Source: Blasia pusilla (taxonomy: Eukaryota). From it: a DNA stretch of 64,000 bases. The notes under the pieces are model-generated. The model ran no database searches, was not told the origin of the DNA, and saw only the letters and a list, made by a program, of their open reading frames with translations. The position numbers and the translations under genes were made by a program. This document shows positions 4,895-58,834 of this stretch, piece by piece. Positions within the stretch are counted from its first letter, which is position 1. The number at the start of each line of letters is the position of its first letter. The DNA is taken from positions 32,240,001 through 32,304,000 of the forward strand of contig CM114271.1 in assembly GCA_050084515.1 (NCBI GenBank). Reading direction: 5' to 3'.

Positions 4895-5857
4895 CTCTCG
4901 CCAAGTACTCTCTGTCTCTCGTCGGTGATCTCGTCACGGACCAGTGTCCGATGATGACGATCCGATCCACGGATGGGGCCGCCGGTAGCTCCTCACTAGT
5001 AACCCCTCGATATCTCACTCCACTCCGTGTCACACCACTACTACTGCTCGCACTACCCCGTTCTTCCGAACCCTGGAAGAACGCCGTGATGACAAACCCT
5101 GTCTCACCCGCTCAAGCACTCGGACTCATCGAGTCTCCCACACGCCTCACTAGCTCACCTATGCGAACATCAATCCCGTGATGACATACCCGGCCTCACG
5201 ACGCTCAACACTCGGGCTCACCATGAGCCTCCCAACTGACTCACCTAACCTAGCGACACACTCTCGGGTCATACACGCGACCCCTACTCGGCAACCGCCG
5301 TATATCCACCAACATGCTACACATGAAAAGAATCTACACTCGTCACCATCACTGCACCCATCTAGCACCAACTACTACCCGATACCCAAAGACTCTCAAT
5401 CACACCACGACAAGTGCGGGAAAAGGGACTCGAATGGGTAACCTGATCACGCCCTCCAACCTGCTGCACCGTCAATATGCACTCCTCCACATAATATGAC
5501 AATCTCCGCCACATAACACTCCCCTCGACCAACACGTCGATCCTCCCGTCAACAGATGCAGACAACCCGTCAGCATCATGCACACTGCCCCTCCAGCGTA
5601 AACTCTCGCAACGCCCTATGCGCGCCTCAAAAACAACATGTCACGCCCGCTGTCCAACTTGTCGATCACTCAGCACGTCGACATCCTCCCTGCCCTCATG
5701 TTGCCCATGCACACCGCGTTCGCCGGACCAACCTCGTCCGTCCTACCACGTTCGCTACGACTGTCCGACCGCCGTCGGTGCTACCACGTCGGAAAGGGGG
5801 AGAAATTTAGGACCGCGGCCCTATGCGGCCCCTTGGGCCCTAAATACGGGGGGGGGC

Positions 5858-6712
5858 TGTCACGCGCCCTGCCGTCCGCCGTCCGCGCCCTGCCGTCCAC
5901 CGTCTGCGCCCTGCCCTAAATTTCGCGACCTAACTCTAGCCGCCTTTACATGACAGCCCCCCGGCGGCTACAAGACCCAACTTGCCCGTTCCTTCTCTTT
6001 CGACGCCTTCACTTGCGTACACCCGACGCCCCACCACACGCTACACTCGGCTGCTGTCCCCCAACAATTTGCACCAGCAAAATCTGAGAAAAACAGATAG
6101 CGCTTCCGCCCACGGCCTTCCGAACAGAAAAATGACACAAAATGACACACACACGTCTCCAGGGGCTCCCCAACCGAGGCAACTCGCTTGCCTACCTGCA
6201 AACAACGAATTCCCACCAGCCCCCTGACATCTTTCTCATGTAAAAATAAAGAGTAGTAAAAACGGCACACCCGGCCTAAAACTCCACTCCTCAATCTACA
6301 TCGGCATATCGAGCCTCGTCCACCTTGTGCTATCAAGGAATCCGGACGCTAGCACTCTAGTCCTAACTCACACACATACAAGGGAGGTGCTCCAACGGCC
6401 CAACATGAGAAAGATGGCTTAAGAAAGCCATCTTCCTCTCTTATATAGGTTGGGAAGAGCCAAAAGGCTCTTCTCCTAAAAATAGCCCTTCCCTTGGTAA
6501 CTTTGTGTGCACAGGTTGAGGCGAGTTACTGGTCAACAAGTCACCCGGTAGAAAAGACCTCAACATGAAAGTAAATCGAAACGCGTTCGACACAATGGAC
6601 CTATCCTCAACCTCATCCGACACTGTGGGACAAAGTTACACTGAAGATAGTCCGTTGGCTCCTACGCCCTATCCACGATAGATCTCGGCCTATCGGCTAC
6701 TCATATGTGACA
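5858..6712 (-). repeat. LTR of copy A
   Basis: Bounded by TGTCAC (5858) and GTGACA (6712). Homologous to 30298-31104 and 58446-58813. Contains TATATAA. The inner boundary is inferred from the terminal inverted repeat only. Confidence 0.8.
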
Positions 6713-30200: not shown

Positions 30201-30297
30201 GAGTCCATGGATGGAAAGAGAACGTATTGAGTCTGTTGACACTAGTCAAAGCTCGAGTCAGGTGTAAGAGGCATCGACCTCTGAACAACAACTTCGT
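27232..30297 (+). mobile_element. Ty1/copia element (5' LTR about 27232-27541, PBS 27542-27553, gag-protease-integrase), cut off by insertion of copy B
   Basis: CA then TGGTATCAGAGC; gag KLNKQNYNVWKFRM; CNYCGIKGH knuckle; protease WYIDSGA; WHKRIGH; integrase LIHSDV, FIDDFS, LRCDGGGEY, TPQQNGVA. The RT half is not found in the window. Confidence 0.92.
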
Positions 30298-31104
30298 TGT
30301 CACATTTGAGTAGCCGATAGGGTGAGATCTATCGTGGATAGGGCGTAGGAGCCAGCGGACTATCTTGAGTGTAACTTTGTCCCACAGTGTCGGATGAGGT
30401 TGAGGATAGGAGGTCCATTGTGTCAAGAACGTTGTTTCTGACAACTTTCATGTTGAGGTCTTTTACATCCGGGTGTCTTGTTGACCATGTTACCCGCCCC
30501 TGGTAACATGTGCGCGCAAGTTACCAAGGGGAGGGCTATTTTTAGGGAAAGAGCCTTTTGACTCTTCCCAACCCTATATAAGAGAGGAAGATGGCTTTCC
30601 TAAGCCATCTTTCTCATGTTGGGCCGTTGGAGCACCTCCCTTGTATGTGTGTGAGATAGGACTAGGGTGCTAGCATCCAGATTCCTTGATAGCACAGGGT
30701 GGACGAGGCTCGATATGCCGATGTAGATTGAGGAGTGGAGTTTTAGGCCGGGTGTGCCATTTTTACTACTCTTTATTTTTACATGAGAAAGATGTCAAGG
30801 GGCTGGTGGGAATTTGTTGTTTGTAAGTAGGCAAGCGAGTTGCCTTGGTCGGGAGCCCATGGAGACGTTGGTTGGTATCGTATTTGTCACTTTTTATGTT
30901 TGGAAGGCCATGGGCGGAAGCGCTGTTTGTTTTTCTCAGATTTTGCTGGTACGGATTGACGCGGGACAGCAGCCGAGTGTAGTGTGCGGTAGAGCGTCGG
31001 GTGTAGGTTTGTGAGGGTGTCAAGAGAGAGAAGAAAAGCAGCTTGAGGGCTTGCAGCCGCTAGGGGGTTATCAAGTAAAGGAGGCTAGGGTTAGGGCGTG
31101 GACA
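30298..31104 (+). repeat. 5' LTR of copy B
   Basis: Starts TGTCAC exactly where homology to the copy A LTR begins and ends GTGGACA. TATATAA at about 30575. Confidence 0.8.
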
Positions 31105-34100
31105 GCGCCTCCCCCCCCCCACCTTCTCATTTATTACTCCCCAAAATTTGGGGAGGCCCATAGGGATGCGGGCCAGGCCCCCCATTTAGGGCCCAAGGGG
31201 CCCGCATAGGGCCACGGGCCAGGTTACCCCCCCCTCCAACGTGGTAGGCCGGACGAGGTTGGTTCGGTGAACGTGGTAGGGCACGGACAGACGTGGTCAG
31301 TCGGGTAGACGTCGTTGAGAGTCCGGATGTGGTCGGGGTCATGTTCACGTGGTCAGACACGATGTACGTGGTTGGAGTGGAGCTCGACCAGGGTGAGTCA
31401 GGTTACATGCGGCGTGTGGGGATGGACGGAGATGTTTGCGTGACATGATGTTTTTGGGGCGCGACAGGGCGTTGTGAGAGTTGACGATGGAGGCGCAGTG
31501 CGCATGATGCCGACGGGTTGTCCACATATGTTGACGGGAGGATCGACGTGTTGGTCGAGGAGAGTGTTGTGTTGCGGAGATTGTCATATCACGTGGAGGA
31601 GTGCATGTTGACCGTGTAGCAGGTTGGAGGGCGTGATCAGATTACCCATTCGAGTCCCTTTTCCCGCACTTGTCATGTGTGATTGAGAGTGTTGGGTATC
31701 GGGTAGTAGCTGGTGCTAGGTGGGTGCAGTGATGGTGACGAGTGTAGATTCTGTTCATGTGTAGCATGTTGGTGGACATACGACGGTTGCCGAGTAGGGG
31801 TCGCGTGTATGACCCGAGAGAGTGTCGCTAGGTTAGGTGAGTTAGTTCGGAGGCTCATGGTGAGCCCAAGTGTTGAGTGTGCGTGAGGCCGCGTATGTCA
31901 TCACGGGATTGATGTTAGCATAGGTGAGCTAGTGAGGAGTGTGAGAGACTCACGGTGAGTCTGAGTGCTTGAGCGAGTGAGACAGGGTTTGTCATCACGG
32001 CGTTCTTCCAGGGTTTGGAAGAACGGGGTAGTGCAAGAAATAGTAGTGGTGTGACACGGAGTGGAGTGAGATACCGAGGGGTTACCAGTGAGGAGCTACC
32101 TCGACATCCATCCATGGCTAGATCGTCATTTGGACACCTGGTGGTGGCGAGATCGCATGACGAGACGATAGTTCTTGGCAGGAGATGGACGACATGGGCC
32201 ATCGAGGCATGCGTCGTTTCTCGGGTGCAGTGGGCACCATCGACTTAGATGATTTTATCCAGGAGTTTGACACATGGTGCCACTTCTAGGAGATACGGAC
32301 CCCGACACGGTTCAACCCTTTCATGGCATGGAAGGGGTTGTTCCAGCACTTGGAGGGTCCTCCGATGGATGACTACATGGAGTTTTGATCACTATATTCA
32401 GTAGAGATCAATGCCTGGAGGATGTATTGGGCTCCAGGGTATGTGTCCACTAGTGGTCGCGAGGCATATGATGGGATTGTGAGAGGAGAGAAACCAACAC
32501 CATCAGCCCGGAGACTAGATGGAGAGAAGGGCAATGAGAGAGGCGATGTGGCAAAGACCTCTGGTGGTAAGGGCCATCCAGCTTCAGCCCCACAGTGGAG
32601 TTCTTCTGACAGTTGGGGAAGAGCTACCAGGGCGTACACACCGACAAGCTGAAGAGTCTACAGGATTTTCAGCGACACGGATGAGAGTATTAGAGAGGCA
32701 TTCACACGCATGAGAAGGATGATCATTGCTACGTTTGGAGGATCGAGGCGCGATCGATCCAGTATTGGTCTGGGGGTTACGGACCGAGAACTACGGAGGA
32801 GAGTCCGAGATGCGGTCTTTGATTCACAAAATGGGCCCACATTGAAGGTGGTCTTTGAGTTTTCGGCGTATTGAGCTCAACATGAGTGAGGAGTAGGTAG
32901 TGACCGCTGGATTTTCTCGAGTCGACGGGTCCCGGCGAAGGTGACCCCCCAGTGCAAACAGGCGAGCACCGATACCACGAGGAGCGGACGGTGCCCAGAG
33001 AGCGAGGTATCTTTGTGAGCCTATGAGACAACGACCCATACCTACATATGTTGCCCAGCAGGGACCGATGTGGTCTTGTTGGACGTGTGGAGGGGCCCAT
33101 AGGCAGAGAGATTGCCCATAGTATGGGAGAGGACCACCAGCACCTCCAATTGCTCAGGAGCCACAGAGGATGGTCCCACCACAACACCAGTGTGACTATT
33201 GCCACAGATATGGTCACACTAGGGATAGATGTTTTGACCTTCGCCAAGGGGCACGTCTAGAGGTAGGCCGAGGGCCTGGGGGCGGTCATCCTGGAGGAGG
33301 TCGGGGAGTCCTTCCTGGACGTGGTGGTAGAGGATCACCACCAACCAAAGGAGATGGAGCAGGAGGATTGCTGCCATGACGATGATGCAGCTTAGGGAAG
33401 GCACGGAGGTACGAGCATCTAGTGTGACTCCAGCTTCTACCTCTTACCCTGACCCGGGTGAGGATCTTGCCAGTATGGGATTTATGTGTAGTGCGGCCAG
33501 GTTGAGGCGGTGCGGTGGTGACTTCGGGAGTCTGCGAGAGGCACCGAGCCATCGAGAGGTGGAGTTGAGATTGACCCACCGAGAGAGGACCGATGGGCGG
33601 CAGGCCAAGGTTCCCTGATCATTCACATTGTCGGAGGCACTACAGTAGTTGACGAGATGGTGGACTTGCCCCACCGAGCCGGTGCTGGGGCGTTCCCCAG
33701 GTGGCATGGGCGGCGGCAAAGTTGGTAGATATGCCGGCTCGACCCGGCCATGGAGCGAGCAATGGTGACACACTGGAGTAGTGTTCTTGGATAACCGAGT
33801 GGAGTATTTCGCTTGGTTAGTCCGGACAGGACAATATACCACCCCAAGCGTCCTACTTAGTTCGGGGGCGCAACCCTTGATGTTAGGAAGGCGGCGTGTT
33901 TAAGCGTTGGGGTTCTGAAGGCCGACATTGAGCCTTGTCCCTTCCACATACTGAGACCTCGATTGGGGCGTGTCACCCACGCGATATATGACTTGACAGA
34001 GATAGTTGTCGAGTCCGGCCAAAGCATGAGAGCGGATAGTGCTATGGTGCGCTACCGCGTGCGATTACGACACCGGCCGAGTAAATGCGATGTGTTGGTG

Positions 34101-34570
34101 GGGAGTCTGATGTTATATCCCCTAAGATTTATCTTGACTTCTGGGAGGAGACCGTTGCTTATCACCACGATGGCGGTCGGTGACGGCGGATGAGTCGATT
34201 ACCGTGCGTTTGCGGGGGGCGAGGTGGTCGATCACGAGGCGAGTCTGTGACCACGTTGGCGGCTTTCACAGGTAGTGTTAGCTGGCCAGGAGAGTTGTTG
34301 GAGGGGAACGTACATGCGGAGGATGTCCCACTAGCGGATAGTCCCACGGAGAGAGAGGCCATGGCGGGTGTCTCTTCCCATGTTGGCGAGGCCTCTTCAC
34401 CATTGTGGGGTACGACTCGAGAGCTACAAAGGAGTGCCGATGACCTCGTGAGGTAGGCGTGGAGTCATGCTTTTATCCCAGAGCAGCGAGAGTCACGTGG
34501 CGATCAGGCTCTTGGAGTGGAGACGTTGACCCCATTGGATACCACACCCGTTGTGTGGCAGTGCCCAGAG

Positions 34571-35425
34571 GAGGGTGTTAGGATGTTAGATCTCTTCGGA
34601 GGGATTAGCACCGGATTGGCTGCAGTATTGCAGGCGGGCATAAGGGTGCATCAGTACCTTTACGTGGAGAGAGATGAGACCGCGCGGCGAGTATCATTAC
34701 GTCATGTGGCGAGATTGGTCCAGAGGTATCCTGAGTTGTTGCCGGTATCTTTAGTACGGGGATATCAGCATACACTACCCGCCGACATCTCTTTGGTGGG
34801 GGCGCAGGATAGAGTTGGCACCATTCATTTGGTGATTGCTAGATGGCCATGTCAGGGTCATTCATCGGTGGCCAAGGATTTGGATTGCGGGGATCCGGTC
34901 GGGGATGTTTTGGGAGATCTTTGCGAGTAGTCGACACTTGCGGGAGAGTGAGACATGTTCTCCAACGCATCATCTTGGAGAATGTGCCATTTTGGGAGAC
35001 ACTCGTGCGCGTGATGACGAGTGTGTATCAGTGAGTCTGGTTGGGACTCTTTGTGTTATTAGATGCGGCGAGAGTTGGATCACGTGCCCATCGTCCCACG
35101 TAATGGTGGGCGAACTGATACCATCAGAGGTACTGAGTCGAGCATACGATGGAGTCTAGAGAGCACCACATCTCACAATGGATGCTATTTTGGGGTAAGG
35201 GCGTCGATCTCAGGTGGTGACACGGGATGATAGACCACCGTTGGCCATGGCCAATAGGGTGGGGGAGTTGAGGGCAGCCTTACCTACTTTGGTGAGCTTC
35301 CCAGCATCCCATGCCTTTCGTCAGGGAGGGCCAGGCATGATTTGGGATGAGGTGACTGGAGCATTGGAGGAGCCTACAGCAGATGAGCGCGAGCACGCCA
35401 TGGGGTTCACTACCAGTACTACAAC
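34571..35425 (+). pseudogene. DNMT3-like C5-MTase domain of copy B, motifs I-IX (motif X continues at 47650-47730)
   Basis: VRMLDLFGGISTGLAAVLQAGIRVHQYLYVERD, HLVIARWPCQGHS, ILENVP and EREHAMGFT. After the insertion it continues TAVPGMTEASWRQVLGQAMDLNCL. Confidence 0.9.
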
Positions 35426-37110
35426 TGTCGCGCCCCTACTCTCCTTGAACGTCAATCTTTAGTGTTGCGGAAGCGTACGTTGAGTAGGTCACGAACTCAT
35501 CCCTGATCTGCACCCAAACACGCACTCTCGTTAGTCGGGTCTGGGCCAACCAGCGTTCCAACCCACCGAGTCCTCAACTCGGCGTCTCATCAAGCTCAAA
35601 CTTCCTTAGTTCCTAGTTTCCAAAACATGGCAAGTCCTTCAAGACTTGGAACAGACTTCCTGGTTAGTCTAGGGATCTGAAACGGCCCTTGCGCGCCTAG
35701 CGATCCCAACTGTTAAACGGTCCTCGGGTGAGTTCCAAACCGAGACCCTAATTGAGTCGCGGGGTGGAATCCAAGAGGGATGTCTAAAATCGCCTCAATG
35801 GACTTGGTGCAGCTTTTCCAACCCAACCCCCAAACTCGCGTTCCGTTCCATGCCCTTGGGCGCCAAGGCCCAAAGTGGGGTTTGGGTTCCAAGCACTCTC
35901 GAAGACCTTCCCCCTTACTAGTACTTCTGGGGTTCTCCAATAACCCCTCCCCTTTGGGAAAAGAGGGTCGGATCCTTCATTGTGGCCCTCAACCCGACTC
36001 TACTTAGAGTCGTTTTCGGGTTGTATCTCGGCCGCTGCTTTTGCGTTTGTAGCGATCTTTGATGCGTTTGGACCGGCTCTCCATAAGATTTCCAACGCAC
36101 CCTTATGTGTTCCAAATGCATCTTGGCGCTAAAAGTTATGGTCATAAATACAGTCGGAAACTCTCAAACGCTAGTGGCGTTCCAAATCCGGATCTTTCCT
36201 TTGGCAACCCACTTCCTAGACTCGACTTCTTTCAAGTCTCATTCCGCGTTTGGTCCAGGTTTCTCAATCGCGACCATAACATCTGAAACGCGACTCCTCG
36301 CTCGCGTCTCGTCTCTTGTCTCCTCTTTGAGACAACTCCAACGCGCAAACCATCTTAGCGTGAGCCCGCTAATGTTCCGATGTTCCGCTTGGCACTTGTT
36401 TGGTCATGAGGGTCGCGACACTCACCCCTCTTTTAGAGGTTGATGCCTTCATCAACGCAAACCTTTGTTATGTCAAGTCTCCTGGGTAGCCTACCCCTTG
36501 ACATTGAATTGCGTTCTGGTGGCTAACCCGCAATTCCTCTAAGTCTCTAGTTGTCGCTTTGCCCCACTTAGAATTATTAGCCTCTCCTCTTTGATAAGCC
36601 TGGACTAGTTCCAAGGAACTAACCTATCAAATAAGCTAACTAAGTGTGCAACCTTAGACTCTTCTGACTCATTCCTATAAACATCACACCTGTTTACCTG
36701 GTCCACAAATCGTACTACTATTGGGTCGCTCTCGTATTCGACTTAGGCACGTCACTAAGTTTACTTATGTGGCCACAAGTAAGATCACCCCAAGCCCCAA
36801 GACAGACTTCATCTGCCCCGCCGACGCTAGGGCGAGCCTGAGTGTAATCCAACACAAGGTCCTGTTCTAGGTACTTATCCACATACGAGCTCTCACCTCA
36901 AATACTCCTTGTCTGTCCTCTTGTCGTACATCCTAAGCCTATGATGAACGACTCATAGCCATGCACTACCATAACAAATTGCAATCAACTCTGGCATCGA
37001 ATCTCCAAATCCATACACTCCTTTATTGCAACACTAGCATATTCTAGTTACAACGGCCTTCGGCCTAAGATTCCACTCGTTACAAGTCCTGTCTCTAGCT
37101 TCTCCTCGTA

Positions 37111-37300
37111 TTAACGTATGTGCTTCCATTGTGTTCGCTTGAAGTCGCACAAAAAGTCTTGCGCGTGTTCCAAATCCGCCTCCGCAATCCAAGTCGCCTC
37201 CTTCACATGGTAGCCCTTCCATTTTACCAAGTATTCATACTTGTTGGCCCGACGCCTCGAACGTAAGATGGTCTCCACCTCAAACTCCGGCTCTTCATTT
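37111..37300 (-). other. Chromodomain at the integrase C-terminus of element C
   Basis: EFEVETILRSR...YEYLVKWKGYHVKEATW. Confidence 0.92.
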
Positions 37301-39900
37301 ACGATGACCGGGTGTGGTCTCACCACCTGTCTCCACGCGAAACGTCTATTATCTTGAAGATATTTCTTCAACAATGACACATGAAAGGTTGGGTGAATCT
37401 TGAACTCATGCGGGAGCCTCAACGTATACACATCCTAAAACGGATTTGCCACAATCACATACGGTCCAACATACTTGGCAGACAGCTTTGCAGAAAATTC
37501 TTTTGGAAGAGTGAGGTTCTTGACACTCAACCACACTTGTTCTCCAACTTGGAATCGTACTTGGCGCCGACTCTTGTTAGCATGCTTAACGTACCTCATT
37601 TGAGCCTTTGCAAGACTTCGCCTCGCGCGCTCCTCCCGTTCTCGCATCTCTACCAACAAACCTTCTGCTGTCGCTTGTCGTGTTTGTGCCAATGTAGTAC
37701 CCTTCGAAAGGGGTAGATCAAGAGGCCCTTCTGGCTCTCGTCCATTTGCCAGGAGAAACGGAGATTCTCGATTTGCGAAATGCTTGGTCGAGTTGTAGCG
37801 ATACTCCGCCATGCTCACCACTTGACCCAATCGCGTTGATTAGCATCGACATAATTCCTTAAGTAGTGATTCACGATAGAGTTTACCTTTTAGTCCGTCC
37901 ATCCGTGCGTGGGTGGAAAGCGTCGTCTTGAAACTCAGCTTGGTCTTAAACCTTACGAACAAGTGCTTCGAAAGCACGGTAAACTTTGGATCCCGATCTG
38001 AAACAATGCTCCTCGGAAAACCATGAGTACGCCACCAGCTATCGAGGAATAGTTGCGCCGTCGTATATAAGCCGTTCGCTATGAATCCACCGTCGCACGA
38101 ATCTCGCCAACTTGCTAAACCGATCAAAAATCACAAGTATAGCGTTGTATCCTCAGATTCGGAAGACTCGTGATGAAATCCATACTCACACTTTGCAAGG
38201 GTCCTTCGGGATCGGCAAGGGATGCAACAAGCCTTGTTTCTTATCATAAGAGACTCTATTCGCTGGCGGAGTCACACTGGTCTTCACATATTGAGCAACA
38301 TCCTCTTTCATGTTGGGCGGAGAAGAACCGCTTTGTGAATGACTAGCGTAGATTTCTCTCCTTTATGTCCTGCCAAGGGCCCGTCGTGACACTCCGCTAA
38401 CACCTTGGTTCGCATCTGCCTTGCCCTACATAGATCCTACTCTGTTTGAACCTTAGTAAACCGTGCCTCAAACTTATGTTGGCCACCTTCTCCCCCCGCT
38501 TCAACTTCCTCGGTACTCCCTCGCTTGAGCATCCTTCATATATCCTTCACTTAATCCTTCTTTCCAGATCTGTTTCTTTAGGAACATTGCTCTCAAGCCC
38601 TGTGTCGTCGCATGGCATGTGTTCCTCCTTGCGACTTAACGATCTGGAATCACATTATCTTTACCTGGCTTGTGAATCAACTCAACATCCATCGCCAAGG
38701 TATCATGCCATCACTGATTGTTTGGTGTCACTCGTTCTGGGTCTTAAAATACTTGAGTGATATATTATCGGTGAATACTCGAGTCCTGTGGAGCCCTAGA
38801 TAATGCCGCCACTTCCTCAAGCAATGTACCACCGCAAACAACTCTTTCTCGTGAGTAGGCCATCTCTTTTCAGTATCGCTAAGCTTCTTGCTCTCATATG
38901 CCACCGGTCTCCCTTCTTGCACCAACATTCCTGCAACCGCGAAATCACTAGCATCGGTATGCACTTGAGCGGTTTGTCAAACTCGGCGCTTCAACACTTT
39001 GGTTCTTGCGATAGAATCGCTTCACTCGGTTGAATGCCTCATTAACTTCCTCGGTCCAAGTCGTGTTGGCAAACTTTCTTTGTCCAATCCGTGAGAGGTC
39101 TAACAATTCCGAAAAGTTTTTCACATAAATGCGATAAAATTGCACCGCACCTATGAACCTCCTCATCTCCTTTACAGTGGATGGGGATTCCCACTCGGAA
39201 ATCGCCTTCACCTTCTCTATGTCGGATCGACGCATCATTTGACCGACCACGTGACCCAAGAATTTGATCTTACTCAAACCAAATTCGCTCTTCTCTACAT
39301 TTGCATACAACCTGATTTGCCCTTAGCTTAGACAAGACCGCTCTCACATGTCGAACGTGCTCCTCTAGTGACTTCGAATAGATAAGTATGTCATCGATAT
39401 AGATGATAACATACTCATCCATTTCCTTGTGAAAAATGGAGTTCATCAATGTGGTGAATGTTGGAGGCGTGTTACATAGACCGAAAGGCATCACTACAAA
39501 CTCAAAGGAACCGTATCTCGTTCTGCACGCAATCTTCTCCACATCGCACCGGCAATCCGAATCTGGTAATATCCTGACTTCACGTCAATCCTATTGAAAT
39601 ATCTCGCTCCTGCCAGCCTATCAAAGAGATCATCTATCCTTGGAAGAGGATAATTTTTCCGAACCGTCACTTTGTTCAGTGCACGGTAATCAACAAACAG
39701 CCTCATCTTTCCATCCTTCTTCTTTACAAAGAGAACATGTGCTCCATAAGGTGACTTGCTAGTCCTAATGTAACCCTTTTCCAAGAGCTCACTTAACTGC
39801 TTTTTCATCTCAAGAAGTTCCTCCTGATTCAACCTATATGGTGCTTTTGAAGGCGGTTGGGAACCGGGTATGATCTCTATCTTATGATCTACGGCTCTAT

Positions 39901-40445
39901 AAGCACAACCGAGTTATACACACGAAGTTGTGAGAGATTTGAGTTTCTGCACTTCTAGATTTGAGCATTTCAGATCTGAATCTTGCCGAGGCCATAACTT
40001 TGAGGTGGAGTGTCATATGAAGCTGAAATTTGGAGGCGACTTGGAGTATAAAGAGGCTCCCTAGCCCTCAGATTTTCAAGCACAACCGAGTTATACACAC
40101 GAAGTTGTGAGAGATTTGAGTTTCTGCACTTCTAGATTTGAGCATTTCAGATCTGAATCTTGCCGAGGCCATAACTTTGAGGTGGAGTGGCATATGAAGC
40201 TGAGATTTGGAGGCGACGTGGAGTATAAAGAAGCTCCCTAGTCCTCAGATTTGCAAGCACAACCGAGTTATACACACGAAGTTTTGAGAGATTTGAGTTT
40301 CTGCACTTCTAGATTTGAGCATTTCAGATCTGAATCTTTCCGAGGCTATAACTTTGAGGTGGAGTGTTATATGAAGTTGAGATTTGGACTCAACGTGGAA
40401 TGTCTAGAGGCGTCTTAATCCTAGAAATTTCAAGTACAACCAATT
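39901..40445 (+). repeat. 177-bp tandem monomers at the LINE 5' end (3 units plus the start of a fourth)
   Basis: AAGCACAACC or a variant recurs at 39901, 40078, 40255 and 40432. Confidence 0.95.
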
Positions 40446-43400
40446 TCTAGAGCAGAAGTTGTGTGGTGTTGGAGATTCAATTATACTTTCTGGGATGCAG
40501 TGAAGTCGACTACAAGATGACCACTCAAGACGAAATCTTGAATGTAGTGCAAGTGGTCTTGCATGAAGTGAAAGAGCTTCGACAAGAATTCAAGGTACAA
40601 ACTTCTCAATTAAACCATGCACATATTCAAATCCGAGAGTTGAAGGCAACGCAAGAGGTTCGAAAGAAAGTGTTGAAAGATAGTTCTAGTGTGATCTTTG
40701 GATCTTTCCAAATCGGTTCGCGGATGTTCAAGAGAAGGCATCATCCTTGGTGACTTCTCCCAATAGTTCAGGATTGCATGAGGTTGTTGAAACTTTAGAA
40801 GTGAAAATGAAATCTTATCTTTGAAGCTACAAAGGTTGCTCATATCTCTTTCTGTCAAGAGCAAGAGATAGAAAAAAGAAAACCAATTTGCCCATAGAAA
40901 GAATGTGAGAATCTCGGGTTTCCGGAAACAGAGAGCGAAGAGGTGAAGAGTGTTGTCACCAAGTTCTTGGTTGATACACTTCATGTTCATAACCCGGACT
41001 TGGCTCAAGCTTTTCAGTATTGGAAAACGGGCACACAACCTCGTGCCATTCTAGTTAAGTTTGTTGATCAAACTCAACGTGAATCTTGCCATGGCTAACA
41101 AGGCCATTCTCAAGGACGGAGGATATGGTTGGATCCTGATCTCACACCTCTACAAGTCGAAGCTAGGAGAAAGGAGCTTGCAAAGGTCAAAGAGGCTCAA
41201 GAAGCAGGTTTTATTGCTTATCGTGATGGTCGAGCAATTGTTACCCCAGAGAAAAGAGAGTTATCAACCTAGCAATCCAAGAAGCTGAGAGTGTTGATGT
41301 GGAATATACGAGGCCTTTCAACAACAAAGTATGTAAGTGCTCTACCAATTTGGGAGATGGCAGATATTATTAATATTGTGGAGAGTTGGGAACATGAGAG
41401 CAATACTATTGCAGAGATGCAAGAGTTTACTTTGGTAGGATCGACATGGAACCAAAGAAGGCAACGGGCGAGGAAGGGTTATGGCGGTATTGCTACTTTC
41501 ATCAGGTCTCAATTTCTACCTCTCATTCATCTAGAAGATCAAGATATCGGGGGTCAATATCATTGGCTACGTCTTGGTTTGGTTGGGGGATCTTATTGTT
41601 ATTTGGTAATTTGTTATTTTGCACCACTCTCCATGCCTATCTACTCAACACGCACTCACAATCGAAGTCAACCGTTCCATTGACTTATTGGGGATGTTCT
41701 CAAATATCAAAGCAAAGGTGAAGTCTTTCTAGTTGGAGATTTCAATGCCGCACACGCATCTTTGCTCAATTTACCCAATTGGTGATTCCTTGATTTCTCC
41801 TCTTCTCGAAGAATATGAGGATGGTTTATGGTCTAGAATCTCTTCAGATCTTTCTACAAATCCTTTGATAGTGTATTTTTTAACCTTTGGATCCACTTGT
41901 AATTTGAAAGTTCTTAATGGAACCTCTCATTTTCCCAACTCTCACTCCAATACGTGTTTCTCCTCTCTGGCGCTAGCACCATCGATTATCTTCTGTCCTC
42001 GCCCACGTGATAGCTCTCTTATCTCTACATTTGATATTCTAGAACCTCGGCTGAATCGGATCATGCACCTCTCTTGTTTACTCTCTCATTTTGTCAAAGG
42101 AAATTCCTCTCTCGACATGTCAATCTATTTTAGCTTCTCCCAAGTTTCGCTTAGATCCTGGAAAAAAAGATCTTTATATGCTACATTTACAAGAACACTT
42201 GACTCGCATTGTATGGAGCCCTGATCCAAACATGGCAAGTATGCAACTAACGGAATTGCTCAAAAAAAGTGCATCTAAGTTCTTTTTTGCGCCCACAGGG
42301 ATAGAAGTGCTAGGAGGTGCCTTGTAATGGGTGGTTTGACTCGAATGCAAGCAAGCAAGGGCACGAGCAGCTGATAAATCTTTGGATATCCCAAGTCGGC
42401 TTATTATGACGAGCCTTTACAAATACTTGGTGAAATCTAAGAAACGAGCTTTCTTGCGGCGAAAACAAGAGTCCTTCACAAGGAAGCTGCATGAGGACCC
42501 CAAATCATTTTGGCGACGGTTAGTAGTACGGTCTTCAAAACCTATTCTTGATCCCAAGTCTTTGATATCTTTTGCCGAAAAGCTCTATTTCTTCCCCGAT
42601 GCTACGTCTATGCCACGTTGTGAAGGAATACCTGGCTTATTCTCTGAAGGAGAGGTGATGACTCAACTAAGAAGATTGGCGAATGGTACATGTGAGGATT
42701 TGGATGGTCTTTCTATTGAACTTTTCAAGTGGGGAGGAGATTGTATTGGACCGATCCTCACCAAATTATTGGGTGATCTTTGCTATCTATGGTTTTCCTT
42801 CAACCTGGTCGCTACGGAGATTGTCCCTATTCACAAATCAGGAAGGAAGGACTTGGTAACAAACTATCGCACTATCATGGTGGGTAGTGTTTTTGCCAAG
42901 TTGTTTGGGAAATTGGTGGAGTCGAAGTTGAGCACATGGACAGAGTCTTTCCAAAAGAGAGCACGGGTCCAAGCTGGTTTTCGTCCAACATACAACACCA
43001 TCGACCATATCTTGGCCTTGCGTGTTTTATGGGAGAAATCTAAGGGCAATGGAAAAGCTTTGTTTAGCGGCTTCATCGATTTCAAGAAAGCTTTTGATAT
43101 TGTACCTCATGAGCTCTTATGGGAAAGGTTGCAAGCCATTGGAGTTCCACAAAATCTCCTAGCAGCCGTGGCCACGTTATACCATTCCGTTCGGGCCAAG
43201 ATCAAAGGTTCACAAAATCAAGAGATCTTGAGCACCATTGGAGTCATTCAAGGTTGCCCTCTGTCCCCTACACTTTTTGGAGTTTTCATAGATGATATCG
43301 AAAAGTGGTTGGAGGAATGTGATAGTGAAGGGGTCAAGCTTGGGGACTTTGTCATCAAAGCTCTATTGTATGCAGATGATATCATATTACTAGCACGTGA

Positions 43401-44641
43401 TGGCATTAGTTTACAAAAGCACCTCGACACTTTGGCAAGGTTTTGTACCCAGAATCAGATGGAGGTTAATATGGAGAAGTCTAAAGTCATTATAGTGGGT
43501 ACTAGATCCAAGTTCTCGTTCTTTTACAAAGGTTCTCGTTCTTTTACAAAGGCTCTCGTTCTTTTACAAAGTGAAGAGTTACAAATATCTATGCATCGAT
43601 TTCTCTCATGACTATAGTTGGGCACTTTGCGTGCAAAAGAGAGTAGAAGCTGGTTACAAAGCTCTATATTCATTTTTAAACCGGTGTAGAAGAGCTCATC
43701 TTGTGTCTTGGAGTCTTAGGAAATTCTTATTTAGGAGCTTAGTGTTGCCGGTGGTCTTATATGGGACCCAAGTTTGGGGCCCTAGTTGTAAGAAGACAGG
43801 TTGGGAGCGCGTGGAAAGAGTGCAAAAGATCTTTCTACAAGAAGAATTGGGTGTAAGAAACCAAACTCCGTATGCTATTCTTCTTGCGGAAACAGGTTTT
43901 CTTCCTCTAGAAGCTGAAGCTCTTTACTTGACCATCAATTACATCGCAAGGGTGAGATCTCTTGATGTTTCTCGCCTCCCTCATCAAGCTTTGCGAGCCA
44001 CATGTTCCATAGGGTGGATGGCGGATGTGGTGACTTGGTCTTCAAAGTGGAATGTGGCAGAACGCGATTGGGACTTGAAACCGATGGCCCTCCGTGAGCA
44101 TCTCTGAAGCAATCTCTCAACATCATTTGGAGCGGTCACGGGCACCAAAATGGAGTTTTATCAACTTCATGTTAATCCTATGCTTGTATATTGTGAACAA
44201 GGATACCTACTTGGGGATCTCCACGTTCTTACGACATATTATCGCACGTCATAGAACTGGGTCTCATAGGCTAGGAATTGAGGAAGGACGATGGTTTAAA
44301 ATTGATAGAAGTGAACGAATTTGTAGGTTATGTGACGGAGAAAATATTGAGGATGAAGAGCATGTGTTTGTTACATGTCCAAGGTATGGAGAAATAAGAC
44401 TAGCTCATAAAATAGATGTGGAGAATTTCTATTCTTTACTACAACTAGTGCCTTATGATTTAGGTTGTTATATTAGGGACGTCATCATTCATCGCTCAAG
44501 TGCTCTAGGCTGTAGCTAGGAGAAGGTCTTAAGGATCTTTTTCAGGGTCAGTCAATGAATGACTTGTAATGTGTTTTTCAGCCTTTTGACCCTTTGGGTC
44601 CCACGGGCTTGATCTATTTACCATTTACCATTTACCATTTA
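39901..44641 (+). mobile_element. Full-length RTE-X-like LINE, copy 2, inserted in the pol of element C
   Basis: 5' monomers; ORF1 from about 40517 (coiled coil, PRAILVKF, WLDPDL); ORF2 about 41291-44519 (APE WNIRG/GDFNA, RT YADD, CCHC-type finger); tail TTTACCA x3. CTAT flanks both ends, and removing the LINE restores [13 protein letters not shown] in the host pol. Confidence 0.95.
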
Positions 44642-47600
44642 CTATGCGGTAGCAATTCAGTCGGAAGCTCATTTGTCAAGACATCCTCAAACTCCTGGAC
44701 CACTTCCTGGAGTGGTTCTGGGATTCCCCTTGAGGCAGCGTCCTGATCTCTGCGTATACTGCTTGTAGCCTCCTCCACTTGTGTCATCAAGCAGAGAAAT
44801 CCATCCTCCAACTCAGTCATGCTCCTCCTTGTGATCGAGTTCACTAACTCCATTTTCGCTGGAACCTCACGGACCAACCGCACCTGTAACCGTTTGCCTT
44901 TTAGCAAGACGCTCAACCTCAAGGGTCTACGTCTTAACTCCACCTCATACGCATCTAGGAATGTATTCCCCAAGACTCCGTCAATGCCATCCATTTCGCA
45001 CACAGTGAAATTCTCCTTCAACTCGAATACCCCGCATCCTACTGTCAAACCCAAGACCAAATCAGAAGTCCGATGAGACTTGCCTCCTGCAAATCCTACT
45101 TGAATGGGCTCATCCGCCTTAGAGGTAGAGAGCCCTAGTTCCTTCACGATTCTCGGGCTTAGGAAGGAGTGCGAAGCATCTGTATCCACGAGCAACAACA
45201 CATCGCGATCAGCAATCTTGGATCTTAGGTACACCAAATTGTGCGTCCTCTTGGTGACTTGAAGGGACGTCTCGAGATCGCCCGCCAACAGATGCTTAGC
45301 AGCAAACACAATCATACTCCCATTACTAACCTTCAGTTTCGAACACCCTTTGCCAGGTGTCCAGGTTCGCCATAGTTGTAGCATACTACCTTGCCGTTCC
45401 CTGACTTTGAGTGTTGTCCTCCTTTCGGTTTCGCATGAAGTTCCACTCATTTTGCTGTCGGGGGAGACGACTCTCCTGGTTCGTGCTGGCCCCCACTCCA
45501 ACCTCTTTTGAACGCCTACTTATTTTTTGACTTCTTCGAAAAACCTTTTGGCTCGAAGGGTTTCTGGGTTTGGACCTCATCGTCCCCAATCCGCTCCGCT
45601 AGCCTCAGAAGATCCGCGCAGGTCTCTGGCAACGTCGACATTCGGTAAAGGGCCTTTTCAGCGCTCGGCTTGAGTCCACTTATGAAGATAGCCTTCTTCG
45701 CGTGCTCATCCATCTTTGGACTAGAAGTCAGTTTTGCACTAAAATCCCTCACATACGCGCTTAAGGAACCACTCTGCCTCATCCGCACGCATTCCACTGT
45801 GTCGCGCAACCCTTGGTACTCCGGAGTGAACCGATCCCCTATCAACTCCTTGAACTCCTCCCAACTCAGAGGTGACTCACCGCCCAGATATTCCTCTCGT
45901 TGAGCTGTCCACCATTGTAGAGCATGATCCTTTAGGAAAGTAACGGCTACCGTCACCTTGTCCTGCTCAGCTGCCCTCTGCGCCTCGTCTGATTCGATTC
46001 CGTATGAAATCCTTCACTTTTCATGGCGCCCCACTCCAAAGTGAATGGTGTGGGCAGGTTTGTCTTGCGAGCTTTTTGCCCGCACCGGGGTTCGAGTGGC
46101 CTCTAACTCTGCAATCCGCTTGCTTTCTTTGGGACATCTGCTCCACCAACACCTTCAACAAGTCCAACGTCTGGCTCGACTCGGTCCGTTCCCCTCAGTT
46201 TGGGCCCATTGGCCCCGCGGAAGGATTCGCCCCCGGAACGTCCTCACGACTGGCGTTCAGCTCTTCGGGAGTCTCCGTCTCCTCTATAGCTTCACGGTCC
46301 GGCATTGGTTCCTCTCTTGGTTCACGTCGCTTGATTCGGCGCTTCTTGGTTGTTCTCCCTCGATCGCCATTTCCAAGCCAACTCACTCGATCTCTCCTCG
46401 TTTCTTGCGTCCCTCCTCGGCGCCGAGTCTAGCCGCTACCTTTGAGTTTCCCCAAGCGTCCGGTTGATCCCACGACCCCAAGTTCTCGCTCACCAAGGAT
46501 TAGCTCTGATACCACTCGTCGCACCCCTACTCTCCTTGAACGTCAATCTTTAGTGTTGCGGAAGCGTACGTTGAGTAGGTCATTTAACTCATCTCGATCT
46601 GCACCCAAACACGCACTCTCGTTAGTCGGGTGCAGGCCAACCAGCGTTCAACCCACCGAGTCCTCAACTCGGCGTCTCATCAAGCTCAACCTTCCTTAGT
46701 TCCTAGTTTCCAAAACATGGCAAGTCCTTCAAGACTTGGAACAGACTTCCTGGTTAGTCTAGGGATCTGAAACGGCCCTTGCGCGCCTAGCGATCCCAAC
46801 TGTTAAACAGTCCTCGGGTGAGTTCCGAACCGAGACCCTAATTGAGTCGCGGGGTGGAATCCAAGAGGGTTGTCTAAAATCGCCTCAATGGAATTGGTGC
46901 AGGTTTTCAACCCAACCCCAAACTCGCGTTCCGTTCCATGCCCTTGGGCCGCCCCGCGGCGCCCAAAGTGGGGTTTGGGTTCCAAGCACTCTCGGAGACC
47001 TTCCCCCTTACTAGTACTTCTGGGATTCTCCAATAGACCGGCTCTCCATAAGCTTTCCAACGCACCCTTATTTGTTCCAAACGCATCTTGGCGCTAAAAG
47101 TTATGGCCATAAATACAGTCGGAAACTCTCAAACGCTAGTGGCGTTCCAAATCGGATCTTTCCTTTGGCAACCCACTTCCTAGACTCGACTTCTTTCAAG
47201 TCTCATTCGCGTTTGGTCCAGGTTTCTCAGTCGCGACCAAAACATCTGAAACGCGACTCCTCGCTCGCGTCTCGTCTCTTGTCTCCTCTTTGAGACAACT
47301 CCAACGCCGCATAAACCATCTTAGCGTGAGCCCGCTAATGTTCGATGTTCCGCTTGGCACTTGTTTGGTCATGAGGGTCGTGACACTCACCCCTCTTTTA
47401 GAGGTTGATGCCCTCATCAACGCAAACCTTTGTTATGTCAAGTCTCCTGGGCAGCCTACCCCTTGACATTGAATTGCGTTCTGGTGGCTCACCCGCAATT
47501 CCTCTGAGTCTCTAGTTGTCGCTTTGCCCCACTTAGAATTATTAGCCTCTCCTCTTTGAGACAACTCCAACGCGCAAACCATCTAAGCGTGAGCCCGCTA

Positions 47601-48040
47601 ATGTTCCGATGTTCCGCTTGGCACTTGCTTGGTCATGAGGGTTGCGACAACAGCGGTGCCAGGGATGACTGAGGCATCCTGGAGACAGGTGTTGGGGCAG
47701 GCGATGGACCTCAATTGTCTCACATGGAGAGTCACACATGGATAGTCAGCAGAGACGGATGCAAGTGTCATCCATGCCGTCACGTCCACGAGTTGGACCA
47801 TTGCCTACAAGGTCTGTACAGGCATTGGATGGGGGCCAGACGAGGAGAGATAGGCACCCATGGACTTCGTGGGACGTCGTTTGAGCAGAGAGTGCGAAGG
47901 CGGCTAGAGTATCGTATGTTCATTTTTTGGATGTGGAGCATGGTGTAGGAGGTTAGAGTGGAGTGGCTGTTGCGGAGGTGGCTAGGGTTGCTACATAGCA
48001 ACCAAAGCCGGAGGTTGCGTCCTCTCCGAGCGAGATCACG

Positions 48041-50950
48041 ATGGAGACTTGGGAGCCTGTGATAGGTCTCAAGTTGATAGGAGGAGAGCGACGGCGAGTT
48101 CATAGGTTTCTGAGATGGCATGTCAGTTGTTTTGCCTTTAGTATGAGAGACTTGGGTACGCTGAAGGGTCCTGGGATACGGATTGAGTTGGCTAGTGACA
48201 CGCCGATCTTTCATCGACCCTACAAGTATTTTGATATGGAGCGAGCCTTGATTCAGAGCAGGAGTCAAGACTTGTTGGAGGCAGGACTTATGGAGTTATC
48301 ACATGGGGAGTATGCATCTGCCATAGTCATGCCGACGAAGAAGGATATGTATGGCAATTGGACGGATAGGCGGTTGTGTGGAGATTACCGTCCTATCAAC
48401 CGACAGACAAGGTCAGATCGGTACGCCATGCCTACTCCTGAGGAGATCTTTGATGCGGTAGGGCATGCAAAGATCTTCAGTACTTTAGATCTCCGTGCTG
48501 GCTATCATCAGCTTCCTATCAGGTTGGAGGACAGGGAGAAGACAACATTCTGGGGGATAGATCGGTTTGGGAGAGATTGCATGTATCAGTGGCGGTTCTT
48601 ACCATTTGGGTTGAAGAACGCACCTGCAGAGTTTCAGAGAGTGATGGATAGGATTTTGGCTGGCTTGGATTTTGTACGATGTTACATAGATGATATTCTT
48701 ATCTTCAGTTCCACGGTTGAGGAGCATGAGCGACACTTGGAGGAGGTGTTTCGGCGATTGCAGTTACATGGACTGAAGTTACATCCAGGCAAGTGCAGAT
48801 TCTTTTAGGAGCAGATTGATTACTTGGGACACACCATATACCCGAGTGGGTTAGGCGTTCAATAGACGAAGGTAGAGGCTATTGCGCAAATTCCACGCCC
48901 TACAGATGTGAATCGAGTCTGAGCATTTCTTGGACTAGCGAACTTCTATCGACGGTATGCCAAGGGTTTTAGTGCGATCGCAAAGTCTTTGACCTTGTTG
49001 ACGAGACTTGATCAGGTTTGGTTGTGGGGAGATGATCAGGAGCGAGCATTTCAGGAGCTCAAGGACAGGTTGACATCCTCACCCATTTTATAGAGACCGA
49101 TTAGGGGTCGCCCATTCCAGTTACATACAGATTGGAGCATGTTGGGTCTAGGAGCAGTGATTACTCAGAGGGATGACGAGGAGAGGGAGTTTGTTGTGGC
49201 TTACGCGAGCCGATTGAACAACATTGCAGAGGCAAAGTACAACTCCTACGAGGGAGAGTGCTTGGCTGCAGTGTGGGCCGTGGCACATTTCATGTGCTAT
49301 TTATTCGGCAACCCTTTCACACTTATCACTGATCATCAGCCGTTGAGGTGGTTGATGGAGTCCGACAAGCTTACGGGAAAGCTTGCCAGGTGGGCTCTAT
49401 TACTACAGGAGTATGAGTTTGACGTGGTTCATAGGCTAGGTCGGCTGAACCAGGATGCGGATGGGTTGAATCGTAACCCATGTCTGAGTCAGAGAGACGA
49501 CACAGGAGCTCGATGGCACGGAGAGAGTGATGAGGAGATGGTGCCCGGTTGGCATGCATCTGCCTATCTTTGTTGGTTGACTATGGCAGGTCAGCCATAG
49601 GTGATGACTCTAGTGGTGGGGTTGGATCATGAGTCTTTGGATCCGGAGGTTAGTCGTGATATCCATGACGATGTGGAGGTTGTGGAGTTCTTGCAATTTG
49701 GCGTCATTGCGTAGTACAAAGTGAGTCTTTGGGGAGCGGATCGGATCCTCTGAGAGAGCCAAGAGGTTCAGGTGGGAGGGGACTCACATTTTGCGGGTAT
49801 GGGGAGATGGTAGGATACGAGTGGTACCTCATCCTTCCCAGAAAGCACGTGCAGTGCGACATGCCCATGAGGAGTTGGGACATTTCGGAGTAAAGCGTAC
49901 TTACAACTTACTCCAGGTTCAGTATTGGTGGCGCGGCATGCATACTGGGGTACAACAGTTTGTGGCCAGATGTATGGTATGTGACAGAGTGCGAGCATCC
50001 TTCAATGCTCCCACTCCGCAGTTACATCCTTTGCCGATTATGGATTTAGGTTATCGGTGGAGTTTAGACTTTGCGAGACCTTTGCCATTGACAGGACGTC
50101 ATCATAGGTACGTGTTGGTCATGGTGGAGCATTTCTCCAAGTGGATAGAGTTGGTGGCACTACCAGACAAGGCGAGCGAGGGAACAGCTTATGCGTTTCT
50201 AGATCGTGTGCTTAGTCACTTTGGTGCACCGGCGGAGGTGTTGACTGACCAGGGTACCGAGTTCAGGGGAGAGTTTCAGGCCTTGTGTGATCAGGCGTTG
50301 ATAGATCACCGCACCACGTCCAGAGATCATCCTGAGGCGGATGGGTTGGCGGAGAGAGTGGTACAGATGGTGAAGAGAGATTGCGCAAGTATGGCTTGCA
50401 GCGGGGACAATTGAGGGAGTGGGACCTACAATTGCCATGGTTGGCTATGGATTATCGCTTTAGTCGGCAGGCATCCTTGGCATCATTTTCATCGTACTTT
50501 TTGCTCTTTGGGAGAGAGCCAGATTTACCTGCAGCGATTTGACGTGACATGGCGGAGGTGTTAGATCTTGATGATCCACATGTGTGGGTACAAGCATGTT
50601 CTCAGAGGGTAGAAATTTTTCGTAGAGTTATGCCTATGGCCTTTGAGAACTTAGCTATTGCCCAGCATAGAGATATATTGAGGTACGCGACCATTCGTGG
50701 AGGAGATTATCGTCCACGGATTAGGAGATTTCATCATGGAGATTAGGTGTACTTATAGCAGGCGGCACCCACGATGCTAGATGTCACTGCAGGGCACACC
50801 ATCCTACGTGTGCGCGAGGTATTACCGACCGGAGTCCTCATGTTGGAGGGACGGGATGGTATGGTTTGGAAGGATCATGTGCGCAATTGTGCGCCATGTC
50901 ATCTTCCGAATGTAGATGGGACGGTGGATCCGAGCTTGGCAGTGGTACCT
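48041..50950 (+). pseudogene. RT-RNaseH-integrase of copy B (in-frame stops)
   Basis: RT YIDD; RNaseH DWS..GLGAV, DHQPL; integrase HEELGH...CMVC, WSLDF, LTDQGTEF, ADGLAER. Confidence 0.95.
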
Positions 50951-50962
50951 GCAGACTTGAGA

Positions 50963-51102
50963 TGTATGTTGTGCGGATCTGTGAGGGGTGCAGCCACCAT
51001 GTTGGTATGTGATGGTTGTTCTCAAGGGTGCCATATGTCATGTCTGAGCCCCCTCTTGATGTGGTTCTCACGGGACGATGGATGTGTCCGATATGTGTAT
51101 AG
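50963..51102 (+). other. PHD finger (C4HC3) at the C-terminus of the copy B integrase
   Basis: CMLC...MLVCDGC...HMSCLSP, then after a 1-nt shift in a C run, PLDVVLTGRWMCPICV-stop. Confidence 0.88.
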
Positions 51103-58813: not shown

Positions 58814-58834
58814 CGTGCGCATACATATCGCTAC

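Follow-up and report, generated by a model that had tools for sequence, protein, structure and literature searches.

The PHD finger predicted at the end of a retrotransposon integrase in Blasia pusilla is a real and ordinary part of its element family, although it is broken in the copy in which it was noticed. That copy is a decayed member of an abundant family of Ty3/Gypsy elements of the KnitGypsy-Dnmt3 type, whose domain order is gag-PR-DNMT3-TAG-RT-RH-INT-PHD, and purifying selection acts on both the PHD and the DNMT. Two long copies of the family, referred to here as copy A and copy B, lie in the 64,000-nucleotide stretch of DNA that was analyzed (the window, Table 1). The original prediction described the product of copy B as a reader plus writer polyprotein. 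This description is not supported, as a conserved in-frame TAG splits the DNMT from RT-RH-INT-PHD and the element encodes its own protease. The presumably leaky stop parts the methylase from the PHD finger, which suggests that the two probably have separate jobs.

In copy B, the first PHD Cys codon lies at 50963 and the closing TAG at 51100-51102, and the domains follow in the order rve, integrase C-terminal region, PHD, and stop codon. The finger therefore sits, as predicted, at the integrase end where chromoviruses have a chromodomain, and a Pfam scan of the stop-free stretches of copy B and of an in-frame natural copy returned no match to Chromo (PF00385). The claim that the finger is complete holds in part. 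All four motifs, the integrase-end position, and the stop are present, but the motifs are divided between two frames: CMLC, CDGC, and HMSC share the integrase frame, while W.CPIC and the stop lie in another. The frameshift is located near 51050-51060, before the last CxxC, and a Cys replaces the Trp that precedes the His in other copies. The suggested check with PF00628 was positive, with 24.5 bits for the in-frame half of the copy B finger (cut-off 24) and 41.3 bits over 47/47 profile positions for the in-frame natural copy. It is possible that assembly noise is the sole cause of the copy B frameshift. Family copies show 5.4 one-nucleotide indels per kb versus 4.6% substitutions, and 19% of these indels fall in runs of three or more, which make up 12% of bases. 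The reading of the element is unchanged either way.

A search of the genome DNA with the PHD region gave 2725 first-look candidates, a figure that counts candidates and not copies, and 40 of these were scored. Among the other copies picked by their PHD, the frame is open to the stop in 25/29 and all eight zinc ligands are kept in 24/29. Copies picked by their DNMT are a less biased sample for PHD integrity; 17/19 contain PHD DNA within the 10 kb fetched, and of those 17 the finger is in frame without a stop in 10 and has its eight ligands complete in nine. Since the PHD is intact in most other copies, the finger is normal for the family and broken in copy B. The PHD of copy A, just beyond the window edge, is in frame with Tyr in place of Cys4. 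A DNMT is found in 17 of 20 long PHD-picked copies, the remaining three carrying internal deletions. No long intact pol was seen among the fetched family copies, for which the longest stretch is 647 codons. RNA reads map with a strand bias to every one of 30 bins along a full copy; only 254/2019 (X4) are at least 95% alike, so most of them come from relatives and have no bearing on copy B or on the TAG.

Table 1. Features identified in the 64,000-nucleotide window, in window positions.
Feature	Position	Strand	Basis
Copy A, same family as copy B (A, gag, PR, DNMT, TAG at 1014-1012, RT)	1..6712	-	
Three LINE-like copies	10606-13543, 39898-44640, 58837-63530		PF00078
Intron-containing receptor kinase gene amid repeats	~16000-21800	+	Pkinase, 86.8 bits
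Sister-family fragment, ~75% alike	25610-26918	+	DNMT, PHD, B-A-B end, and TAG motif in L071-L080 family
Copia gag-pol fragment, 5' flank of copy B	28038..30264	+	PF22936, PF13976, PF00665, PF25597
5' terminal repeat A of copy B, begins TGTC	30298..30779	+	
Copy B region of zinc-knuckle-like gag and aspartic protease, decayed, approximate bounds	32200..34100	+	Homology to other copies
Copy B C5 methyltransferase, DNMT3-like, from motif I on, with a frameshift and split by nested insertion	34520..35413	+	PF00145 in copy A (39 bits); end resumes after ~47650
Chromovirus inserted in copy B DNMT, approximate bounds	35426..47649	-	PF00385 (53.6 bits), PF24626, PF03732
Chromodomain-bearing ORF of nested chromovirus	37114-37434	-	PF00385
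LINE-like element interrupting nested chromovirus	39898-44640		PF00078
Conserved in-frame TAG then CAA CCA, TMV-type context, between DNMT and RT	47996..48004	+	Same position in second family and metagenome relatives
Start of second reading segment, linker and reverse transcriptase	47999..48805	+	PF00078, 96.6 bits
RNase H	49094..49597	+	PF17917, 116.6 bits
Integrase H2C2 zinc domain and DDE core	49725..50411	+	PF17921 (58.8 bits), PF00665 (57.4 bits)
C-terminal region of the integrase, comprising a helical part, an SH3-like beta barrel, a CAPCH motif, and a linker; interrupted by stops in copy B	50543..50962	+	Homology and structure model
C4HC3 PHD finger and stop codon, end of copy B integrase, frameshifted	50963..51102	+	Motif positions, PF00628
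Possible Myb/SANT-like ORF, faces Harbinger-like transposase	53862-55190	+	
Harbinger-like DDE transposase	55696-56670	-	PF13613, weak
Isolated end-of-B and A fragment of PHD family	58446-58835	-	Cut by LINE-like copy, adjoins AG microsatellite

Copy B extends from 30298 to 51105, where its 3' end is lost three bases beyond the stop, and is interrupted by the nested chromovirus. The remainder of copy A (INT-PHD-B-A-B) extends past the window and was recovered in locus L051. For the integrase C-terminal region, a model of an in-frame natural copy has a mean pLDDT of 62.5, and its top Foldseek matches are the PFV and Ty3 intasomes. The protease match (Asp_protease_2) is below cut-off in an intact relative. 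The family ends are of the DIRS-like type A-coding-B-A-B, with A of ~485 bases, B of 138 bases, a two-base B-A spacer, and termini TGTC and GACA (TG...CA); the same arrangement occurs in L105, L113, and L142. Copies with both ends are flanked by a 4-bp target duplication that is exact in 16/19 and has one mismatch in 3/19. Five copies are A-coding-B only with the duplication still intact, L057 possesses a second A repeat, and L047 resembles a tandem pair. A primer binding site was looked for by eye after repeat A in the window (30298-30820) and none was seen. A purine run lies directly before the first B (L059:8940-8955 and L059:9070-9110). DIRS retrotransposons use a tyrosine recombinase and are not known to make a target duplication. 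A DIRS identity was rejected on the basis of the rve integrase and the exact duplications, and a chromovirus identity was rejected on the basis of PF00628 rather than PF00385 at the integrase end and split repeats rather than two LTRs. The PHD family accounts for ~6% of 200 kb of randomly sampled DNA and its sister family for ~5%. Elsewhere in the window, the receptor kinase gene is presumably SERK/BAK1-like, and a tandem array of ~177-base units occupies 63042-64000.

The copies that stay in frame past the DNMT all terminate at one and the same TAG. The DNMT and RT-RH-INT-PHD share one frame across this stop with no single uninterrupted ORF, and hence DNMT and PHD could be on one chain only via readthrough. 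Among the fetched copies, the junction reads TAG-CAACCA in 35/37 (TAG-CAACAC in one and absent in one), and with the two window copies (47996-47998 and 1014-1012) the count is 37/39. A second family in the genome, ~75% alike in RT DNA, has both DNMT and PHD and shows TAG-CAACCA in 9/10 copies within a different flanking peptide. The metagenome locus L087 consists of a 1369-codon ORF, TAG-CAG-TTA, and a 1047-codon ORF ending in a PHD, and the metagenome locus L088 has TAG-CAA-TCA despite 0.5-0.7 divergence at synonymous sites. Across families 1 and 2, L087, and L088, the second codon after the TAG encodes Pro, Leu, or Ser and is always YYA. A stop followed by CAR-YYA forms the readthrough signal of TMV, with an efficiency of 6-10% in Arabidopsis (PMC2754532, PMC2194720). 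That the TAG arose by decay in a single master copy was rejected, since divergent families retain it and so does an element whose two frames are otherwise open. In the metagenome loci with DNMT and RT, many of which are copies of few families and hence not independent, an in-frame stop-CAR-YY is found in 16/31, at 336 or 357 bases before the RT. Thirteen of these are TAG-CAA-CCY, one is TAA-CAA-CCC, and two are TAG-CAR-YYA, such that 14/16 end in CCC or CCT and not YYA. The 15/31 loci without the motif include a family lacking the stop and copies with insertions.

Based on the conserved TAG and its TMV-type context, the DNMT is probably made at the Gag level and the integrase-PHD only by readthrough. 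Among DNMT hits without an integrase, 22/26 end 79-174 aa past the DNMT. An alternative is that the TAG is a true terminator and that splicing, an internal RNA start, or re-initiation gives rise to RT-RH-INT-PHD, with DNMT and PHD never in one chain. The gag-pol stop of Tca2 shows that the TMV model need not apply (PMC2194720), and the CAA-CCC variant that characterizes another family is off the CAR-YYA consensus. Against this are the exact continuity of the frame and the retention of CAR-YYA through substitutions that change the amino acid, and we regard a true terminator as very improbable. Readthrough is not general to the relatives, as DNMT and PHD are in one ORF without a stop in many of them, namely P0013, P0187, P0258, the L113 family, and the whole of group II (see below); the separation by a stop is thus a feature of one sub-clade.

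The methylase itself is a non-rearranged, DNMT3-related C5 methyltransferase with the motifs LFGG, GWPCQ, ENV, R.H.PR, and GQAMD. PF00145 scores 39 bits in the copy A DNMT, and for the DNMT domain of the relative L087 the top PDB matches are DNMT3A, 3B, and 3C, ahead of bacterial enzymes and DRM. When the integrase tail and PHD served as the query of a protein search, 118 proteins (719-2050 aa) were retrieved; 109 of them carry PF00628, a number biased by the inclusion of the PHD in the query. Pfam overlooks most methylases of this clade: PF00145 is annotated in 13/118, versus 66/118 with >40 bits for a custom profile built from the family DNMT and its first hits. The long DNMT hits mostly keep the motif IV Cys and motif VI EN, and the Volvox, Pleodorina, Tetrabaena, and Astrephomene DNMTs gave no match to the catalytic motif patterns used. 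These four genera, Coleochaete, Klebsormidium nitens, Tetraselmis, and Chromochloris are the named members, and the pairing of DNMT3 with an integrase-PHD recurs from Volvocales to Marchantia. The co-occurrence of PHD and DNMT that the original prediction proposed to examine therefore holds across copies, families, and species. Two members, P0165 and P0114, are labeled bacterial (uncultured Synechococcales and a Minisyncoccia MAG), which is probably bin contamination.

An integrase tree of 123 rows (FastTree, midpoint root, without an outgroup set) splits the clade into group I and group II, and an RT tree (FastTree) gives group II a support of 100. In group I, the DNMT precedes the RT where seen and the PHD is at or near the end; in group II, the DNMT lies between RNase H and integrase and a long tail follows the PHD. 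The grouping of the K. nitens element with the Blasia family is tentative: both fall in one 39-row group of the integrase tree (SH-like 88), and P0118 occupies a long branch spanning the midpoint root of the RT tree. A reverse search with the DNMT found 40 proteins from 8000 candidates scored, of which 14 carry an integrase: eight have a PHD, three are cut or end early, and three (P0262-P0264) have a different tail. P0070 and P0078 contain protease, RT, and PHD but gave no DNMT hit. As DNMT without PHD (P0262-P0264) and PHD without DNMT (P0070, P0078) are each nested in the clade, the pairing is old and usual but not obligatory. The idea that this element had reassembled the two domains is not upheld, since judged from these sequences both look ancestral in a clade that spans chlorophytes and streptophytes. 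Five hits of the DNMT search are Marchantia polymorpha gene models annotated as hypothetical proteins, Mp_4g09160 (P0249), Mp_6g11220 (P0254), MARPO_0008s0049 (P0253), MARPO_0204s0011 (P0257), and MARPO_0020s0163 (P0259), and they look like the Gag-protease-DNMT first ORF of the clade.

The group II tail past the PHD spans 250-460 aa in 47 proteins (e.g., P0074 1560-1881, P0041, P0088, P0212). It contains a weak Tudor-like match (PF21743, E 0.002 in P0114) and a fold of the class I SAM-methyltransferase type; DPxxGxG occurs in 16/47 and SPP(F)/SPWF in 18/47. The P0088 tail matches a PHROG DNA methyltransferase (E 2e-9), and a tail model with a pLDDT of 87 has KsgA and M.BseCI as its closest folds. 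On this modeling, group II elements would combine two methylases, a 5mC enzyme and one of amino type, with one or two readers.

The PHD was compared with solved structures and with its relatives in the clade. Its closest solved relatives among the best 60 of 78 PDB matches are CHD4, PHF12, DPF2/3, KDM5A/B PHD1, PHF21A, ATXR5, BAZ2, and UHRF1, and no DNMT3 ADD is among these 60. Residues were counted over the 101 of 119 proteins that match the PHD pattern. The Asp after Cys3 (the KDM5A D312/UHRF1 D334 position) is present in 96/101 and a PxGxW-type A1 pocket in 77/101, both including the Blasia family. The position two before the His corresponds to the cage Trp of the H3K4me3-reading PHDs of ING, BPTF, and TAF3. 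Here it is Gly in 91/101 and aromatic in 0/101, and an aromatic residue at Cys1-2 occurs in 12/101; an H3K4me3-reader identity was rejected for lack of the aromatic cage. The C4HC3 finger, the Asp after Cys3, the PxGxW pocket, and the missing cage are shared with KDM5A/B PHD1, UHRF1, CHD4, and PHF21A (10.1101/715474, PMC3214078). Unlike KDM5A/B PHD1 and its kin, the Blasia family has no acids at the positions of D292, E305, and D315 (KDM5A numbering as in 10.1101/715474), and its finger has a net charge of +3 within a clade range of -11 to +4. An acid is found at Cys3-6 in 46/101 and at Cys1-4..-1 in 56/101 clade members. The missing acidic K4-pocket residues and the basic finger imply that the predicted H3 binding may be weak, and the UHRF1 PHD shows that binding via R2 with a loose K4 readout is possible (PMC3214078). 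By these residues, the finger is of the KDM5-PHD1/UHRF1 type predicted to bind unmodified H3, and not an ADD. Between families 1 and 2, the PHD dN/dS is 0.14 (15 pairs, not independent), and between L087 and L088 it is 0.05. For comparison, the DNMT has 0.12, and RT, RNase H, and integrase have 0.02-0.04. Within-family values of 0.48-0.68 are in line with decaying copies. A search of the ESM Atlas with INT-C-PHD returned PHD clusters only.

An ADD consists of a GATA-like finger and an all-cysteine PHD-like finger beside the catalytic domain. The ADD identity was rejected because the finger is C4HC3 and is separated from the DNMT by ~1000 aa and a stop. The DNMT3-like reader/writer logic of the original prediction is likewise not borne out, for this same reason and as each domain has been lost without the other. 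In its strongest form, this logic would have the PHD link the DNMT to H3K4-unmethylated chromatin and methylate the new site as it is chosen, via an uncleaved readthrough product or a DNMT-intasome complex. Such coupling is unlikely given the conserved stop between DNMT and PHD in the sub-clade, the ~1000 residues of presumably protease-processed polyprotein that lie between them, a finger that is not an ADD, and the independent losses of DNMT and PHD.

Both long copies had been described as landing inside other transposons, which is confirmed for copy A and half visible for copy B. Copy A is inserted in a chromovirus gag with a GTGT duplication. For copy B, the loss of the 3' end at 51105 leaves only one junction visible, the 5' one in Copia pol. 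Copy A sits in a sister copy (6713-8088) of the chromovirus that is nested in copy B; as each family is nested in the other, the periods in which the PHD family and the chromovirus were active overlapped. Insertions into transposons are frequent in this genome in any case. Flanks were assessed with 300-base 3' flanks of 43 copies against 200 tiles from 20 random 10-kb stretches, a flank being counted as repeat if at least 30% was covered by a repeat library of <1 Mb. Repeat flanks numbered 22/43 versus 77/200 tiles (p 0.17, with pseudo-replicated tiles), and with other libraries 23/43 versus 79/200 (p 0.12) and 21/43 versus 54/200 (p 0.006). Chromovirus control flanks (25 kept of 29, four internal sides dropped) gave 17/25 and 11/25, and the comparison of the 43 PHD-family flanks with these 25 showed no difference (p 0.31, 0.80). 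A mild enrichment of PHD-family insertions in repeats is possible. The proposal that the PHD picks integration sites thus keeps a conserved finger of the unmodified-H3 type, for which a targeting role is the best guess, but repeat flanks are no more frequent than in the chromovirus control.

These flanks also bear on a reading in which the PHD serves as a general tether (to a host protein, to DNA, or to the surface of nucleosomes) or has a structural role within the integrase, with no mark-based choice of site and a copy distribution set by post-insertion selection. About half of the flanks are not recognized repeats, there is no difference from the chromovirus control, the acidic K4-pocket residues are absent from a basic finger (net +3) in the sub-clade, and post-insertion selection is known to shape such distributions (PMC6673714). 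We nevertheless consider this reading rather doubtful, as the R2-binding Asp is kept in 96/101 and the A1 pocket in 77/101 across chlorophytes and streptophytes.

Our current hypothesis, which we favor with moderate confidence from the sequence comparisons, is that the methylase and the finger have separate roles: the readthrough site would split a methylase for element cDNA from an integrase-PHD tether to nucleosomes. Most ribosomes would halt at the TAG and give Gag-PR-DNMT, a minority (6-10% by the TMV signal in Arabidopsis) would pass it and add RT-RH-INT-PHD, and the protease would then release the individual domains. The abundant DNMT would work inside the particle or close to it, with cDNA of the element itself as its most likely substrate. 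Action on cDNA was proposed for the K. nitens element in PMC5890265, where the K. nitens enzyme showed no methylation activity in yeast, a result deemed inconclusive by its authors. The PHD would remain on the scarce integrase and tether the intasome to nucleosomes by binding the free N-terminus of unmodified H3 (A1, R2), K4 being read weakly or not at all in the Blasia family, and could direct insertions away from H3K4me3 promoters. Reader and writer would be two separate aids to one life cycle, free of ADD-like enzyme control. Extra CpG loss as a sign of self-methylation was not found in a comparison of one element with random DNA (CpG o/e 0.83 versus 0.70).

A wider picture is offered only tentatively. 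There may be one old, unnamed green-plant Ty3 clade with a DNMT3-type methylase, an integrase-PHD, and split repeats (where ends are seen), in which reader and writer were kept since before the chlorophyte/streptophyte split while the methylase moved. One sub-clade would make its methylase at capsid level via a plant-virus readthrough signal, enough for every new cDNA and perhaps host DNA, and group II would add a Tudor-like domain and an amino-type methyltransferase. Such elements might arrive pre-methylated, be steered to H3K4-unmethylated chromatin, and seed heterochromatin.

Why retrotransposons retain a methylase that normally silences them has been a standing question since 2018. A stop that fixes the DNMT dose at the Gag level suggests that the enzyme acts inside the particle, on cDNA of the element itself. 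The relatives Mp4g09160 and Mp6g11220, annotated as ordinary genes, bring the question to Marchantia polymorpha, a model plant with chromatin maps, and gene models of this sort may wrongly be counted among host DNMT3 genes.

Some of these features have precedents. DNMT3 in a Gypsy element with such repeats (2018) and reader-plus-methylase LTR elements (2026 preprint) are already known. As far as the literature was searched, three features are apparently new: the site of readthrough, a chlorophyte group in which the DNMT has changed position, and an additional methyltransferase in the tail of that group. We found no text on PHD and DNMT3 in one Gypsy, on chlorophyte forms, or on this readthrough site, though figures, Repbase, REXdb, Craig's thesis, and bioRxiv supplements may contain them; the portions available of 10.1101/2021.11.30.470311, PMC11982613, and PMC6453930 held no closer precedent.

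The nearest known system is KnitGypsy-Dnmt3 of K. nitens (de Mendoza et al. 2018, PMC5890265), which has a DNMT3-like domain upstream of RT in a Gypsy pol and DIRS-like repeats. Our search matched the K. nitens protein KFL_009030040, which falls in the same integrase-tree group as the Blasia family. The available text of PMC5890265 does not mention a PHD, although its Fig. 4c may show one; the K. nitens model, being incomplete, stops short of where a PHD would lie, and its sister P0031 has a PHD. The same text treats the element as a capture in the K. nitens lineage, whereas relatives were found here in Marchantia polymorpha, Coleochaete, Tetraselmis, and Volvocales, and PMC12344493, as far as available, limits TE-borne DNMT3 to streptophytes and dinoflagellates. 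The Blasia family further differs from KnitGypsy-Dnmt3 in the stop with a readthrough signal between DNMT and RT.

PHDs have been called widespread in retrotransposons (PMC6673714), and Chlamydomonas Gypsy elements with a PHD are published (PMC9940879, PMC8557442). Of these, Gypsy-7a_cRei and REM1 are green-lineage Gypsy elements whose PHD is proposed to limit harmful insertions, and Gypsy-7a_cRei, with the PHD in Gag-Pol, has a 2.6-fold intergenic bias (PMC9940879). Compared by description only, Gypsy-7a_cRei differs in its ordinary LTRs, and DNMT3 is not mentioned in the available text of PMC9940879. Chromoviruses share a histone-reader domain at the integrase C-terminus and have chromodomain-guided integration (cited in PMC6673714); the Blasia element has instead a PHD, split repeats in place of two LTRs, and a 4-bp duplication. 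EpiLTRs (bioRxiv 10.64898/2026.05.21.726589) likewise combine reader and methylase in one LTR element, but with DAM, a DNMT4-related enzyme, and a chromodomain, and are described in the preprint text as distinct from the streptophyte Gypsy-DNMT3. An EpiLTR identity was rejected, as the Blasia element ends at the PHD and its enzyme is of DNMT3 type. Lastly, precedents for the stop are TMV-type readthrough, with an in-frame UAG then CAR-YYA as in the Blasia family, and the retroelements MuLV, SIRE1, and Tca2, which have an in-frame stop (PMC2754532, PMC2194720). The Blasia family differs from these in that its stop follows protease and methylase, which places a chromatin enzyme on the abundant side.
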